From NCBI GenBank assembly GCA_041650595.1, contig JBAZKW010000003.1, positions 44,843-108,842 on the forward strand: a stretch of 64,000 nucleotides of DNA. Direction: 5' to 3'. Each line of letters opens with the position of its first letter. The first letter of the stretch is position 1. Of this stretch, positions 22,623 to 47,678 are shown piece by piece. Origin of the DNA: Candidatus Margulisiibacteriota bacterium. GTDB taxonomy: Bacteria; Margulisbacteria; WOR-1; JAKLHX01. The translations under genes were made by a program, and so were the position numbers. The notes beneath the pieces were generated by a model. That model saw only the letters and a program-made list of their open reading frames with translations, searched no databases and was not told where the DNA came from.

Positions 22623-22649
22623 CCGTACGGGCCGGTCGCGACCGGCCCC
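22623..22649. repeat. Palindrome family E (CCGTACGGGCSGGTCGCGACCSGCCCC), copy 1
   Basis: GGGCCGGTCGCGACCGGCCC palindrome between prs and hom. Confidence 0.85.
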
Positions 22650-22657
22650 AACATTTT

Positions 22658-27724: not shown

Positions 27725-27752
27725 TGTACAGGCGTCGCATGCGGCGCCTCTA
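27725..27752. repeat. Palindrome family D (TGTACAGGCGYCGCATGCGGCGCCTCTAC), intergenic copy
   Basis: Near-identical to the copies at 27514 and 27909, in the same orientation. Confidence 0.9.
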
Positions 27753-27760
27753 CGGAATCA

Positions 27761-28309
27761 TTACAACCACCCTATCATCGCGAACGACGCGATCGTCTTC
27801 GCATCTAATATTTTACCACTTCTGAACATTTTTCTGATCTGGGAACGCGATACGATCAGGGGCTCGATGATCTCATCGGGATCGCATTTTATGGGCGATA
27901 AATTGCCATGTACAGGCGTCGCATGCGGCGCCTCTACCAAAACTAATCCCTTTGCCTGAAAAATATGCAAAACCTCCGTCGAATAACCCGGACATGGGAT
28001 CAATTTGCCGATCTTTTTGATCGCCGTCGCTCTATAACCTGTTTCCTCTATCAATTCGCGTTTCGCACAGGCAAGCGGCTTTTCCCCCTTGTCTATGGAA
28101 CCTGCCGGCAATTCGTAGATATATTGATTCACTACTACCCTGAATTGCCTGATTATTACGACTTTATCCCTGGAGATAAGGGGAATGATGACTACCGCTC
28201 CCCTGTGTTTTACAAAATCATAAAGTTTTGTGATGCCGTTAGGCAGAGTGATCTTTTCTCTTACAAAATCAAAGATGCGGCCTTTGTGAACGAATGCTTT
28301 TGAGGACAT
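27761..28309 (-). CDS. NUDIX hydrolase (ADP-ribose pyrophosphatase-like) with an in-frame repeat insertion
   Basis: Nudix box GEKPLACAKRELIEETGY. The segment VEAPHATPVHG is encoded by palindrome family D. Confidence 0.8.
   Translation of the reverse strand: MSSKAFVHKGRIFDFVREKITLPNGITKLYDFVKHRGAVVIIPLISRDKVVIIRQFRVVVNQYIYELPAGSIDKGEKPLACAKRELIEETGYRATAIKKIGKLIPCPGYSTEVLHIFQAKGLVLVEAPHATPVHGNLSPIKCDPDEIIEPLIVSRSQIRKMFRSGKILDAKTIASFAMIGWL
27909..27936. repeat. Palindrome family D, copy inside the NUDIX gene
   Basis: TGTACAGGCGTCGCATGCGGCGCCTCTAC. Confidence 0.9.
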
Positions 28310-40528: not shown

Positions 40529-40613
40529 GTCATTGCGAGCCCCGCCTTTGGCGGAGCGAAGCAATCCCATAGACCAATGGGATTGCTTCGTCGCTTACGC
40601 TCCTCGCAATGAC
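40529..40613. repeat. Nested inverted-repeat element family B, copy 3
   Basis: GTCATTGCGAGCCCCGCCTTTGGCGGAGCGAAGCAATCCCATAGACCAATGGGATTGCTTCGTCGCTTACGCTCCTCGCAATGAC in the trpB/leuS divergent spacer. Confidence 0.9.
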
Positions 40614-40665
40614 ACTTTCCATATTTTTGACTATTATATCACGCGCATATATAATTATGCTTATA

Positions 40666-43143
40666 ATGGTAGAGTATAATTTTCGTGAAATTGAGAAGAA
40701 ATGGCAGGATTTTTGGGAAGCCAACAAAACCAATGAAGCCCTAAACCAAAGTGACAAGCCAAAGTTTTATGACCTCGTGATGTTCCCCTACCCGTCAGGC
40801 GCCATACATATGGGACATGTCAGGAATTATGCCATAGGAGATATAGTAGCCAGATACAAAAAAATGCAGGGCTTCAATGTACTGCATCCCATCGGCTGGG
40901 ACGCTTTTGGCATGCCGGCCGAGAATGCCGCGATAAAGAACAACTCCCATCCCAGAGACTGGACCGAAAAATGCATAGAGAGAATGAAAGTACAGCTAAA
41001 GAAGCTGGGTCTTTCCTACGATTGGTCTAGGGAAGTCACCACCTGCAAGGAGGATTATTACAAATGGACACAATGGATATTCCTTCAGTTTTACAAGGCG
41101 GGACTGGCTTACAGAAAAAAAGCCACCATAAATTGGTGCAATACCTGTGAAACAGTGCTTGCCAACGAACAGGCAAAAGAAGGAAAATGCTGGAGATGCG
41201 ACAGCAAAGTCGAAGAAAAAGCGCTCGAACAATGGTTTTTTAAGATAACCGCATACGCCGACAAACTGCTCAACGATATAGACAAACTGGAAGGGTGGCC
41301 GGATTCTGTAAAAATAATGCAGCGCAACTGGATCGGCAAAAGTGAGGGCACCAAAATAATCTTTAAGATCGAGAATTCTGATAAGACGCTCGAAGTTTTT
41401 ACCACAAGACCGGATACTTTGTTCGGCGTGACATATATGACGCTGGCACCGGAACATCCGCTGACGCTTGAGGTTTCGCATACGAAACCTCAACACGAGG
41501 CGGTAAAAAACTATATAGAAAAAGTCCGTGAAGAGAAAAAGCTCACCAGAGAGTTGTCGGATGAAAAGACGGGTGAGTTTACCGGGGCTTTTGCAATAAA
41601 TCCCGCAAACAACGAAAAAATACCGATATGGACGTCCGATTACGTCCTTATGGAATACGGCACAGGCGCTGTTATGGCCGTTCCGGCACACGACCAGAGA
41701 GATTTTGATTTCGCGAAGAAATTCGGATTGCCGGTCAAAACAGTGATCGTTCCGGTTGACCGCGTAGATGTTGATTGTAATCGACATCTACCTTTGGAAA
41801 TCAACGGTGCCTACGTCGATCCCGGCGTCATGGTAAACTCCGCCCAATTCGACGGCACAAAAAGCCCCGATGCCATAAACGCGATCACCGACTGGCTCAT
41901 CGAAAAGGGCGTCGGTAAAAGGGAAGTGAATTATAAGATCAGGGATTGGCTGATATCACGCCAGCGCTACTGGGGCGCGCCGATCCCGATAATTTATTGC
42001 GAAAAATGCGGTGCCGTTCCTGTTCCGGAAAAAGATCTCCCGGTAAAGCTCCCTTATGATGTAAAATTCACGGGAGAAGGGGGATCCCCTCTTTCAAGAT
42101 CCGATAAATTCGTAAATACAACATGCCCAAAGTGCGGAGATAAAGCAAAAAGAGAAACAGATACGCTGGATACGTTCAACTGCTCGTCGTGGTATTTTCT
42201 GCGCTACATAAATCCTAAGCAAATGGACAAGCCGTTCACATATGATGACTTAAAATATTGGATGCCTGTTGACCAATATATCGGAGGGATAGAACATGCT
42301 ATCCTTCATCTTCTTTATTCCAGGTTTTTCACCAAAGCCCTTTACGATCTTAAGCTGGTCCCGGCGGACGAACCTTTCAAAAATCTTTTGACCCAAGGAA
42401 TGGTCGTCAAAGACGGGGCAAAGATGAGCAAATCCAAGGGCAACGTGGTCGATCCGGATTACATTACCGAAAGATACGGGGCCGACACTGCCAGGCTTTT
42501 TATATTATTCGCGTCCCCTCCCGAGAGAGAGCTTGAATGGAGCGACGCAGGAGTAGAAGGAAGCTACCGGTTTTTGACTAGGATATGGAGATTGATTACG
42601 GAACAAGCCCTCACCCCCATCCCCTCTCCCAGCACGCTCTCGGCGGGCGTTGGGAGAGGGGTGCCCGAAGGGCGGGGTGAGGGTGAGATCATCCAAAAAC
42701 TCCACAAAACCATCAAAGGCGTGACGGATGACATCGAAAGATTTTCTTTCAATACGGCAATATCAAAGATCATGGAGCTTGTCAATGCATTGCAGGGACA
42801 ATCTTTCAGCAAGGCAACAGCAGAAAAGCTTATTATCATGATCTATCCGTTTGCTCCTCATATAGCGGAAGAGTTGTGGCATATGTTGGGAAATAAAAAT
42901 ACAATAACATCCGAGACCTGGCCTAAACATGACGAAAACCTCGCAAAAGAAAGCCGGATCGAGATACCGATCCAGGTGAATGGTAAATTGAGAGACAAAA
43001 TAATGGCTCGGGCCGGGATCTCGGAAGAAAACGCTAAAGAACTCGCGTTAAATACCGATAAAATTAAACAGGCGATCGCAGAAAAACAGATAGTTAAAAT
43101 AATTTTCGCAGGCGGAAAACTCGTGAATATTGTCGTAAAATAG
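40666..43143 (+). CDS. leuS: Leucine--tRNA ligase, carrying two in-frame palindrome insertions
   Basis: HMGH (HIGH-type) and KMSKS motifs and a CP1 editing domain. Start set at MVEYNFREIEKKWQ. Confidence 0.95.
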   Translation: MVEYNFREIEKKWQDFWEANKTNEALNQSDKPKFYDLVMFPYPSGAIHMGHVRNYAIGDIVARYKKMQGFNVLHPIGWDAFGMPAENAAIKNNSHPRDWTEKCIERMKVQLKKLGLSYDWSREVTTCKEDYYKWTQWIFLQFYKAGLAYRKKATINWCNTCETVLANEQAKEGKCWRCDSKVEEKALEQWFFKITAYADKLLNDIDKLEGWPDSVKIMQRNWIGKSEGTKIIFKIENSDKTLEVFTTRPDTLFGVTYMTLAPEHPLTLEVSHTKPQHEAVKNYIEKVREEKKLTRELSDEKTGEFTGAFAINPANNEKIPIWTSDYVLMEYGTGAVMAVPAHDQRDFDFAKKFGLPVKTVIVPVDRVDVDCNRHLPLEINGAYVDPGVMVNSAQFDGTKSPDAINAITDWLIEKGVGKREVNYKIRDWLISRQRYWGAPIPIIYCEKCGAVPVPEKDLPVKLPYDVKFTGEGGSPLSRSDKFVNTTCPKCGDKAKRETDTLDTFNCSSWYFLRYINPKQMDKPFTYDDLKYWMPVDQYIGGIEHAILHLLYSRFFTKALYDLKLVPADEPFKNLLTQGMVVKDGAKMSKSKGNVVDPDYITERYGADTARLFILFASPPERELEWSDAGVEGSYRFLTRIWRLITEQALTPIPSPSTLSAGVGRGVPEGRGEGEIIQKLHKTIKGVTDDIERFSFNTAISKIMELVNALQGQSFSKATAEKLIIMIYPFAPHIAEELWHMLGNKNTITSETWPKHDENLAKESRIEIPIQVNGKLRDKIMARAGISEENAKELALNTDKIKQAIAEKQIVKIIFAGGKLVNIVVK
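41764..41791. repeat. Palindrome family F (GTAGATGYYGATTGYAATCGRCATCTAC), copy inside leuS
   Basis: GTAGATGTTGATTGTAATCGACATCTAC encodes VDVDCNRHL. Confidence 0.9.
42608..42684. repeat. Palindrome family C, long copy inside leuS
   Basis: CCCTCACCCCCATCCCCTCTCCC ... GGGAGAGGGG ... GGGGTGAGGGTGAG encodes ALTPIPSPSTLSAGVGRGVPEGRGEGE. Confidence 0.85.
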
Positions 43144-46018: not shown

Positions 46019-46047
46019 GTAGGGGTGGGTTTGAAACCCACCCCTAC
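46019..46047. repeat. Palindrome family G (GTAGGGGTGGGTTTGAAACCCACCCCTAC)
   Basis: 12-bp perfect stem downstream of gdhA. It may double as a terminator. Confidence 0.85.
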
Positions 46048-46085: not shown

Positions 46086-47678
46086 ATGCACGATATTATC
46101 GAAAAGATCCTGCCCTCCGTCTCAAAACCGGGACGATATATAGGCAATGAACTGAACTCTGTCCACAAACCACATAAAGACAAGCTAAAGTTTGCCCTCG
46201 CTTATCCGGATACTTACGAAATTGGGATGTCGAACCTTGGACTTCAGATCCTTTACCATATTTTGAACCAAAGACCGGATATTGTCGCCGAGCGTTTTTA
46301 CGCTCCATGGCCTGACATGGAAGAAAAGATGAAAGAAAATAATATTCCATTATTTTCTCTGGAGAGCTGGACTCCTATAAAAACTTTTGACATAGTCGGA
46401 TTTTCGATACAGAACGAACTTACATACACAAATGTTTTGAACATGCTTCAGGTTGCAGGATTGCCCCTGATGCGAAAAGACAGGAACAACTCACATCCGC
46501 TCATAATCGCCGGCGGCGCATGCACTAATAATCCGGAGCCCCTATCCGATTTTATCGACGCGTTTGTTATAGGGGACGGAGAAGAGGTCATATTGGAAAT
46601 TGTTGATACGTATAAACAATGGAAATCTGAAAATATTGTAGATGCCGATTGCAATCGGCATCTACGCAATCATTTATTGACCGCACTATCCAAAATTCCC
46701 GGCATATACGTCCCTGATTTTAATGAATTTAAAGATATAAAACGCCGCATTGTCAAAGACCTGAATTCGATAGATTATCCCGCCTCCCCTATCGTCCCGT
46801 TCATAGAGATCGTCCATGACAGGGCTACGATAGAAATAATGAGGGGATGTCCGCATCGATGTAAATTCTGCCAGGCAGGTACGGTCAACAAGCCCGTGCG
46901 TATGCTTAGCCCGGAAAAAGTGATAGGGCTTGCCAAGGAAACCATAAAAAACACAGGATTTGAGGAAGTGTCTCTTGTATCGCTCTCCAGCAGTGATTAT
47001 CCGTATCTATATGATGTGGCAATTGAACTTGGAAAAGTGTTTTCTCCAAAAAGGATATCCCTATCGCTGCCGTCACTGCGAGCCGACAATCTTAAGGAAG
47101 AAGTCGCCAAAGAAATGCTATCAGTACGCCAGTCGGGATTTACCATAGCACCTGAAGCCGGGACCCAAAGATTAAGGGATCACATATGTAAAGACCTGAC
47201 GGAAGAAAAGATAATAGACTCCGTAAAGACAGCGATAAAAAGCGGATCTAACCGGATAAAATTGTATTTTATGATCGGGCTTCCTACCGAGACCGATGAG
47301 GACATAAAAGGCATTGTTGATCTGGCATATCTTTTGATAAAAGAAGCTAAAGCAATAACTTCTCGCGCAAAGATAATCGTAAATGTTTCCACTTTTATCC
47401 CCAAAAAGAACACTCCTTTTGAAAATGAAAAGATGATCGGCCTTGACGAGATAAAAAGAAAACAAGATTATCTAAAAAACAACCTGCGGCACAAAAGTAT
47501 CGAATTAAAATGGCATGACAGCGGCATGAGTACGATCGAAGGACTACTCTCTATGGGAGGCAAGGAAGCAGGAAAAGTGCTGCTCAAAGCATTTGAATCC
47601 GGCTGCAGATTTGATAACTGGGCTGAATATTTTGACTACTCAAAATGGGAGAAAGCGATTGCAGAGAATACGGCTTAA
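46086..47678 (+). CDS. Radical SAM protein with a B12-binding-like N-terminal domain (TIGR03960-like)
   Basis: EIMRGCPHRCKFCQAG radical-SAM cluster motif. It is followed by its usual DUF2344-type partner. Confidence 0.8.
   Translation: MHDIIEKILPSVSKPGRYIGNELNSVHKPHKDKLKFALAYPDTYEIGMSNLGLQILYHILNQRPDIVAERFYAPWPDMEEKMKENNIPLFSLESWTPIKTFDIVGFSIQNELTYTNVLNMLQVAGLPLMRKDRNNSHPLIIAGGACTNNPEPLSDFIDAFVIGDGEEVILEIVDTYKQWKSENIVDADCNRHLRNHLLTALSKIPGIYVPDFNEFKDIKRRIVKDLNSIDYPASPIVPFIEIVHDRATIEIMRGCPHRCKFCQAGTVNKPVRMLSPEKVIGLAKETIKNTGFEEVSLVSLSSSDYPYLYDVAIELGKVFSPKRISLSLPSLRADNLKEEVAKEMLSVRQSGFTIAPEAGTQRLRDHICKDLTEEKIIDSVKTAIKSGSNRIKLYFMIGLPTETDEDIKGIVDLAYLLIKEAKAITSRAKIIVNVSTFIPKKNTPFENEKMIGLDEIKRKQDYLKNNLRHKSIELKWHDSGMSTIEGLLSMGGKEAGKVLLKAFESGCRFDNWAEYFDYSKWEKAIAENTA
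46638..46665. repeat. Palindrome family F, copy inside the radical SAM gene
   Basis: GTAGATGCCGATTGCAATCGGCATCTAC encodes VDADCNRHL. Confidence 0.9.

Follow-up and report, generated by a model that had tools for sequence, protein, structure and literature searches.

Palindromes of a dispersed GTAG REP family are translated within leuS, a radical-SAM gene and other core genes of a WOR-1 (Margulisbacteria) genome

We analysed a 64,000-nt stretch of a Candidatus Margulisiibacteriota genome (assembly GCA_041650595.1; hereafter the window), which spans C3:44843-108842 of a 1.886-Mb assembly of 47 contigs with 45% G+C. Two genes of the window, leuS, encoding leucyl-tRNA synthetase (LeuS), and a gene for a B12-type radical-SAM protein, each contain a 28-nt GTAG...CTAC palindrome translated in frame, as VDVDCNRHL in leuS and as VDADCNRHL in the radical-SAM gene (Table 1). 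An earlier reading of the window, made from the sequence alone, had drawn attention to this pair, and the open reading frames (ORFs) and their translations agree with the positions, frames and peptides that it gave. A degenerate pattern of the palindrome, allowing up to three mismatches, matches the window at these two sites only and found nothing in 100 dinucleotide-preserving shuffles. As set out below, the two palindromes are very probably double-foot GTAG members of a dispersed family of repetitive extragenic palindromes (REPs) that has cognate REP-associated tyrosine transposase (RAYT) genes, and are passively translated in tolerant protein loops.

The two copies differ at four positions (8, 9, 15 and 21). 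The radical-SAM copy is a perfect hairpin, as the sequence-only reading had held for both, but the leuS copy combines 12 Watson-Crick pairs with two G:T pairs (T9:G20 and G14:T15). The same reading described the differences as compensatory, TT/AA versus CC/GG; this proved right for pair 8-21 (T-A versus C-G) and for that pair only, pairs 9-20 and 14-15 being altered on one side. As RNA, the radical-SAM hairpin has a predicted folding energy of –18.4 kcal/mol, and the leuS hairpin one of –14.2 kcal/mol on the sense and –10.3 kcal/mol on the antisense strand. A covariance model built from the family (R1) scores the radical-SAM copy at 41.5 bits and the leuS copy at 37.0 bits on the plus and 33.5 bits on the minus strand. 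The radical-SAM copy is also identical at 28/28 positions to an element at C5:9248-9275 that abuts a RAYT gene. We regard the leuS copy as an older, partly decayed member of the subtype to which the radical-SAM copy belongs.

Both copies lie inside recognised domains, near their ends, and the placements suggested earlier (after the CP1 region of LeuS, and in a linker before the radical-SAM core) have to be corrected: the leuS site is within the Pfam editing-domain envelope, near its C-terminal end, and the radical-SAM site is within the Radical_SAM_N2 envelope (residues 52-210). We compared LeuS with its counterparts in 80 distant genomes and in 30 relatives (labelled G001, G002 and so on, the genome under study being G000; G001 and G002 are of the same genus and G003 is of the same family). 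VDVDCNRHL was not found in LeuS of any of these genomes, including G001 and G002. In LeuS, the stretch bounded by the conserved KTVI-VP and AYVDPG blocks has no fixed length or sequence across the compared genomes and is 7 residues shorter in G002 and G003 than in G000; the closest named LeuS, from a WOR-1 genome, shares 59% identity. The radical-SAM segment is absent from all orthologues found, in 24 of the 30 relatives, and the G000 protein is longer by 10 residues than those of G001 and G002 and by 8 than that of G003 (89% identical). Since the orthologues lack both segments, the two inserts are, on these alignments, lineage-specific. The earlier proposal that both are insertions in variable protein segments is thus borne out, and no unrelated lineage carries either segment.

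Throughout the genome, the two copies have relatives in a family with some 55-65 members, each 28 or 29 nt long and of the form GT[A/T]G...C[A/T]AC, dispersed both within and between genes. A census of near-palindromes with GTAG/CTAC ends returned 25 at 28 nt, 6 at 29 nt and almost none at other lengths, and model R1 gave 107 strand matches, which correspond to ~55 sites. Subtypes are set by their centres (GATTGCAATC, CGCATGCG and GGTCGCGACC, plus the 29-nt GGGTTTNAAACCC), and the stem sequence is unique to nearly every copy. Fifty 28-mers have G1 in 45, T2 in 46, A3 in 39 or T3 in 10, and G4 in 43; of the pairs that make up the double foot, 1-28 and 2-27 are invariant and 3-26 and 4-25 covary or are conserved. 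The 3' end is the complement of the 5' GT[A/T]G foot, so that a hairpin with a GTAG foot can form on either strand. Identical copies with unrelated flanks (the radical-SAM copy and C5:9248-9275; C12:18517 and C19:3904) show that the repeated unit is the palindrome itself. The flanks have a mild mirrored preference, with T at –1 in 34/65 and A at +1 in 31/65.

Among 30 aligned members, two-sided changes are seen at 11/14 stem pairs and 98.6% of cells are paired. As these members had been picked for palindromy, we also ran a centre-blind scan that scores the outer 10 bp only; it recovered 33 copies with a spacer of 8 and 9 with a spacer of 9, whereas the reversed genome, scanned as a control, gave 0-2 per spacer length. 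Complementarity extends to all four central pairs in 30 of the 33 spacer-8 copies, which makes the elements true DNA palindromes without a loop, more than hairpin stability alone would require. The two-sided stem changes, the agreement of the centre-blind census, the use of two reading frames and the existence of intergenic copies favour the hairpin over the peptide as the conserved entity, as the sequence-only reading had argued. A chance origin is ruled out by the window shuffles, the length-specific census and the reversed-genome control. The family is not a CRISPR repeat, its copies being scattered singly or in loose pairs across many contigs, with no regular array in the census. Nor does it consist of intrinsic terminators: A is favoured at +1, no T run directly follows the hairpin, and close to half of the family is found within ORFs; T is mildly enriched downstream from +5, with a peak of 32/65.

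Five genes of the genome, and one gene fragment, encode Y1 HuH proteins of the REP-associated type. The best NCBIfam model for the C1, C2 and C4 proteins is NF047646 REP_Tyr_transpos (E 1e-13 to 3e-20), and Pfam Y1_Tnp, scanned against these three as proteins, passes its cut-off of 23 with 30-37 bits. The other four RAYTs are 35-40% identical to the C5 copy, which identifies them as diverged paralogues and not as identical multi-copy transposases of an insertion sequence. In an alignment, none of the five has lost the HuH motif, the catalytic Tyr with an Asn four residues later, or the W-Q...(E/D)(H/R)..R residues that in E. coli TnpA-REP contact the GTAG guide (PMC3479197; PMC6006769). In C5 numbering these are H79-F80-H81, W138, Q139, D144, R145, R148, Y159 and N163, corresponding to E. 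coli H59/H61, W94, Q95, E100, H101, R104, Y115 and N119 as mapped by spacing, not by structure-based alignment. The idea that the C5 RAYT lacks the catalytic Tyr (motif WQRSFHD) was dropped, as E. coli numbering puts this Tyr 21 residues past the Trp, where it is present in 5/5. The C5 sequence gave no significant match to solved structures.

The RAYT genes themselves carry members of the family. At least four of the five have an in-frame family palindrome between the HuH and Tyr motifs, read as GRGAINRAST on C1, VGAGFKPAPT on C2 and VDAHCNAHL on C5, with two copies on C8. The genes on C5, C8, C1 and C2 have REPs of the census subtypes at their borders, inside them, or both (REPtron layout), and the stop codon of the C5 gene is the TAG of its flanking 3' REP, the element identical to the radical-SAM copy. 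The C4 RAYT has a ~70-residue insert between the two motifs (VGPTHDG...GQTRRSAPT...GANLCVRPKPCVRPKP) that resembles several nested or decayed hairpin repeats.

Table 1. Features of the window (coordinates without prefix) and RAYT-like genes of the genome (coordinates with contig prefix)
Feature	Coordinates	Strand	Remarks
leuS (LeuS, 844 aa)	40609..43143	+	Pfam tRNA-synt_1_2 at residues 239-430; REP in variable loop near end of editing (CP1) domain
28-nt double-foot GTAG REP, GTAGATGTTGATTGTAATCGACATCTAC	41764..41791	.	TTGCAA-centre subtype; in frame in leuS; partly decayed
B12-type radical-SAM gene (530 aa)	46086..47678	+	Radical_SAM_N2 and Radical_SAM; REP at residues 185-193, near end of N2
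28-nt perfect double-foot GTAG REP, GTAGATGCCGATTGCAATCGGCATCTAC	46638..46665	.	in frame in radical-SAM gene
29-nt REP, GGGTTTNAAACCC subtype	46019..46047	.	intergenic spacer upstream of radical-SAM gene
28-nt REP, GCATGC-centre subtype, head degraded to GTAC	27910..27937	.	in frame in minus-strand NUDIX hydrolase gene, read VEAPHATPV
Second, identical copy of NUDIX-gene REP	27726..27753	.	184 nt from first; outside any supported gene
28-nt REP, TCGCGA-centre subtype, GTAC...CAAC feet	22625..22652	.	just upstream of start of a 440-codon ORF; probably intergenic
REP-like near-palindrome, CTTGAGGTTTCGCATACGAAACCTCAAC	41467..41494	.	leuS residues 287-296; 12/14 pairs, GCATAC centre
Second in-frame insert of leuS, read as PIPSPSTLSAGVGRGVPEGRGEGE	42616..42687		residues 670-693
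Palindromes AGCAATCCCAT-N-ATGGGATTGCT	19516; 23670; 40560		unrelated family, GC-rich flanks
RAYT-like gene	C1:116108-116695		NCBIfam and Pfam protein scan
RAYT-like gene	C2:13816-14469	minus	NCBIfam and Pfam protein scan
RAYT-like gene	C4:44073-44831		NCBIfam and Pfam protein scan
RAYT-like gene	C5:9296-9742	minus	whole-genome NF047646 search
RAYT-like gene	C8 ~42230-42800		whole-genome NF047646 search

Translation of these elements is not particular to the two genes of the window. Twenty-three copies lie inside housekeeping genes, 22 of them in Pfam domain envelopes and one in a well-supported ORF outside any envelope. Their hosts encode LeuRS, IleRS, DapF, a HemN-like protein, a BioF-like aminotransferase, LeuC (two copies), two further radical-SAM proteins, HisF, FolP, ornithine carbamoyltransferase, RimO/MiaB (two copies), FabG, a family-2 glycosyltransferase, GlpK, a GlpA-like oxidoreductase, a GH57 branching enzyme, ThiG, a NUDIX hydrolase (copy at residue 124, NUDIX envelope 35-148), a GNAT protein and an AddB-like nuclease. 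For most host genes the sequence to either side of the element has positive coding potential; in a few the score is weak to one side, and the assignment depends on the Pfam envelope. Together with five more in-frame copies in the RAYT genes, ~28 of ~60 family members are translated. Frame use is 22 (GTA-G..) to 6 (xGT-AG.) to 0, the unused frame being the one that reads TAG, and by our own arithmetic equal use of the two open frames would rarely give a 22:6 split (binomial, two-sided p ~0.004). No frame-breaking copy was found, in an analysis that included no systematic search for disrupted genes. The resulting peptides are very diverse (VGADCNPPL, VEAPHAEPQ, and VGAGFKPAPT and GRGAINRAST in the RAYTs).

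Some of these copies have features of their own. A second pair of unrelated proteins, a radical-SAM activase-like protein and a 948-aa AddB-like nuclease (C12:18517-18544 and C19:3904-3931), have the identical REP peptide VGADCNPPL. The FolP copy (C18:27539-27566 and downstream) encodes VEAPHAEPQQ, after which the protein continues with AEPQQAEPQP, apparently through an in-frame tandem duplication of the 3' arm.

LeuS also holds other repeats. Its second in-frame insert, a segment that orthologues lack, derives from another kind of repeat, in which a GGGGTGAGGG motif comes after an imperfect inverted repeat, CCCCTCTCCCA...TGGGAGAGGGG; the genome has 38 occurrences of the CCCTCACCCC motif. The near-palindrome CTTGAGGTTTCGCATACGAAACCTCAAC is closely similar to the GCATGC-centre REP subtype and coincides, with no length change, with a conserved native LeuS segment (LEVSHTKPQ; LE[VL]S[HK]..PQ). 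Pairing at the equivalent site is 12/14 in G000 and in G002 of the same genus, 7/14 in G001 and 2-6/14 in more distant relatives; this site may be due to chance, or may be a native quasi-palindrome made REP-like in place. The palindromes AGCAATCCCAT-N-ATGGGATTGCT belong to an abundant family of ~40 sites genome-wide, one of which is just upstream of the leuS start.

Among the relatives, the family is patchy and it is expanded in G000. With the covariance model applied to the 30 relatives, we obtained ~16 sites in G008, 9 in G009, 7 each in G001 and G021, fewer in five others and none in 21. RAYT-like matches are present in G008, G009, G005 and G006, which include the REP-rich G008, G009 and G005; G002, G004 and G007 show neither RAYT-like matches nor family elements. 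In G001 (loci L117, L168 and L156), whose assembly is reported to be 99% complete, perfect palindromes occur in RimO and upstream of the radical-SAM gene.

In different lineages, different inserts occupy the same loops. The LeuS loop of G007 holds another GTAG element, GTAGGGGCGCACGGTCGTGCGCCCTTT, read as VGAHGRAPF and three codons from the G000 site, and in G001, G008 and G009 this loop holds Pro/Gly-rich repeat inserts that are unrelated to the REP but related to the PIPSPSTLSAGVGRGVPEGRGEGE insert. The radical-SAM loop of G008 has a degenerate GTAG element a few codons upstream and in the other frame, and in the first LeuC loop G001 has another REP, offset by one to three codons from that of G000. 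In all, an independent REP from another lineage occupies 3/4 of the insert-bearing loops compared. As the positions within a loop differ by a few codons, there is no single exact target; the likeliest reason for the re-use is that few loops tolerate inserts, although insertion may also be targeted. Net changes relative to the relatives are irregular, at +10 or +8 residues in the radical-SAM protein, +7 in LeuS, +6 in LeuC, +8 in RimO and 0 in IleRS, which means that native bases were lost with or after insertion. With such changes, neither the inserted unit nor a target duplication could be derived from the relatives' empty sites.

We compared two orthologous REPs across species, the RimO copy and the 29-nt copy upstream of the radical-SAM gene. 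The RimO REP reads GTAGATGCTCTCCATGGAGAGCATCTAC in G000 and GTAGATGCTGCCCATGGGCAGCATCTAC in G001, at the same codon and with homologous flanks; the two differ by two mirrored double changes and both are perfect. The 29-nt REP is 29/29 identical in G001, next to spacer sequence that has diverged with indels, and shows two mirrored double changes in G003. All four differences between orthologous copies are therefore compensated and none is single-sided. Mirrored changes are what we observe; either selection on the hairpin or templated correction from arm to arm could keep the palindromes perfect, and the palindromic centres incline us towards a DNA-level symmetric process for their upkeep.

A unifying model based on these data is that RAYTs disperse the REPs and that the host reads through those that land where they do no harm. 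By analogy with E. coli TnpA-REP, the RAYTs would bind the GTAG-footed hairpin in single-stranded DNA, cut it and rejoin it. A copy in a gene would persist only if the net length change is a multiple of three, if the frame avoids the TAG within GTAG, and if the site is a tolerant surface loop; a surviving element would simply be translated, adding about nine presumably neutral residues, and the self-complementarity of its stem would be upheld through mirrored changes. Several points weigh against this model. GTTG...CAAC feet, found in about one fifth of the 28-nt copies, fall outside the published GT[AG]G consensus. The NF047646 scores of the RAYTs (52-73 bits) are under the curated cut-off of 80, partly because REP inserts split the domain match in two. 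G001 has no RAYT match at E <= 0.001, yet holds ~7 family palindromes, some of them perfect. Lastly, exact insertion of 28 nt would shift the frame and the net changes are irregular, so cut-and-paste of a 28-mer is not the whole story.

A more ambitious version holds that the REPs are self-symmetrising palindromes that return to a few protein loops, with arm-to-arm templating, by RAYT strand transfer or by template switching, as the means of upkeep, and with in-place overwriting of quasi-palindromic coding sequence. This rests on the mirrored-only changes, the palindromic centres, the perfect copies in a relative without a detected RAYT, the REPs in 3/4 of the loops and the palindrome over a native leuS segment. 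We think it unlikely; if true, REPs would continually supply essential enzymes with new loop variants and would not be one-off accidents.

Several of the same observations could instead mean that the hairpins serve the host, as RNA or single-stranded DNA structures that act in translation, in mRNA stability or processing, or in protein binding, and that selection keeps them even within genes. The conservation of orthologous REPs amid diverging flanks, including the fully identical copy upstream of the radical-SAM gene in G000 and G001, the mirrored nature of 4/4 orthologous differences and the retention of perfect copies by G001 all fit such a role, as does the better preservation of the leuS hairpin on the sense strand; published REPs can stabilise mRNA or terminate transcription (PMC3733652). 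However, palindromy spans the four central bases in nearly all spacer-8 copies, which a hairpin loop does not need, the host genes and sites share nothing, and relatives do well without the inserts, while the sense-strand bias amounts to two G:T mismatches that a C-to-T mutation bias could explain equally well. We consider a host function improbable, including the ribosome pausing or RNA processing that the sequence-only reading had raised.

It is less probable still that the palindromes were never transposed and arise or are renewed in place, through replication template switching in quasi-palindromes or through gene conversion by other copies, overwriting native sequence. The zero net length change at the IleRS copy and at the leuS site CTTGAGGTTTCGCATACGAAACCTCAAC, the location of the latter in a conserved native segment whose pairing is highest in G000 and G002, the irregular length changes elsewhere, the perfect symmetry of copies through their centres and the mirrored orthologue differences all agree with such a process. 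But the presence of the same 28-mer at distant loci with unrelated flanks calls for copying from one locus to another, and the conserved GTAG feet, the subtype-specific association with RAYTs and the co-occurrence of REPs and RAYTs among relatives fit mobilisation; an in-place process could maintain the copies without explaining their origin. It is extremely unlikely that the two enzymes each gained the common peptide on their own as a protein motif under selection, such as a Cys/His metal site (DCNRH): the two copies do share a frame and a Cys/His peptide, and the family has its 22:6 frame bias, but its members encode very different peptides in two frames, many are intergenic, the variation is mirrored at the DNA level and orthologues lack the segment.

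Translation of REPs in tolerant loops has published precedents. GTAG-tagged REPs were defined by Di Nocera, De Gregorio and Rocco (2013, PMC3733652), who described in-frame intragenic copies, including some in tRNA synthetases, and argued that loops tolerate them. Our elements resemble theirs in being in frame in genes of known proteins, tRNA synthetases among them, sometimes twice per gene and in loops or linkers; in contrast, the tag is there unpaired at one end and the copies are mostly intergenic, whereas here the tag pairs with CTAC and nearly half of the copies are intragenic. 'Double-foot' REPs, which begin with GT[AG]G and end with the complement of this foot, and REPs in frame between HuH and Tyr are known from tnpA-REP subclass 2.4 (Quentin et al., 2018, PMC6006769), and TnpA-Y1 subclass 2.4 (RAYT group 4) is scattered over many phyla (PMC6006769). 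The system described here shares with this subclass the 5' GT[AG]G foot and its 3' reverse complement, the REPs within the gene between HuH and Tyr and a REP type per RAYT, a likeness drawn from gene features and not from phylogenetic placement; it differs in its common GTTG/CAAC feet, loop-less perfect palindromes, near-unique stems and uncultured small-genome host. With the REP/BIME system of E. coli, whose TnpA-REP (RayT/YafM, PDB 4ER8) is a monomeric Y1 HuH nuclease (PMC3333891; PMC3479197), it has in common the GTAG guide at the hairpin foot, the Y1 HuH gene and the REPtron layout, but the REPs of E. coli are imperfect and single-footed, lie outside genes and are nearly the same throughout a class, with one RAYT versus five here.

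Two further comparisons concern behaviour and upkeep. Rickettsia palindromic elements (RPEs) are likewise selfish palindromic DNA that has inserted in frame in housekeeping genes, whose products gain extra loops from its translation (Ogata et al., 2000, summarised in PMC3733652). Of these, RPE-1 is longer, the short RPE-4 and RPE-6 belong to the CGTC super-family, and no dedicated transposase is reported for CGTC REPs (PMC3733652). Membership of our family among the RPEs is ruled out by its 28-29 nt and GTAG tag, and the likeness is in behaviour only. Pseudomonas REPINs (Bertels and Rainey, 2011, PMC3116915) are RAYT-associated and long-lived, and in them too compensatory change across the hairpins is common and the symmetric hairpin is the maintained unit; unlike the single 28-29-nt palindromes described here, REPINs are extragenic REP doublets with a ~70 bp spacer. 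GTAG REPs within genes, REPs with a double foot and REPs in RAYT genes are thus already published, and what is new here is the host. The GTTG feet, the loop-less near-unique palindromes, the five RAYTs in 1.9 Mb and the high intragenic share are differences of degree.

Our study therefore offers a compact example of a published but little-known phenomenon, in which nearly half of a REP family is translated, in core enzymes and RAYT genes, in a small genome of an uncultured lineage; the core enzymes include LeuRS, IleRS, LeuC, HisF, FolP, RimO and ThiG. For annotation, it means that short peptides common to unrelated proteins, and odd loop inserts in conserved enzymes, can be selfish DNA rather than functional motifs. 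The family also provides a test case for palindrome maintenance, as mirrored orthologous changes and re-used loops could reveal how the palindromes are kept up and whether their insertion is targeted.

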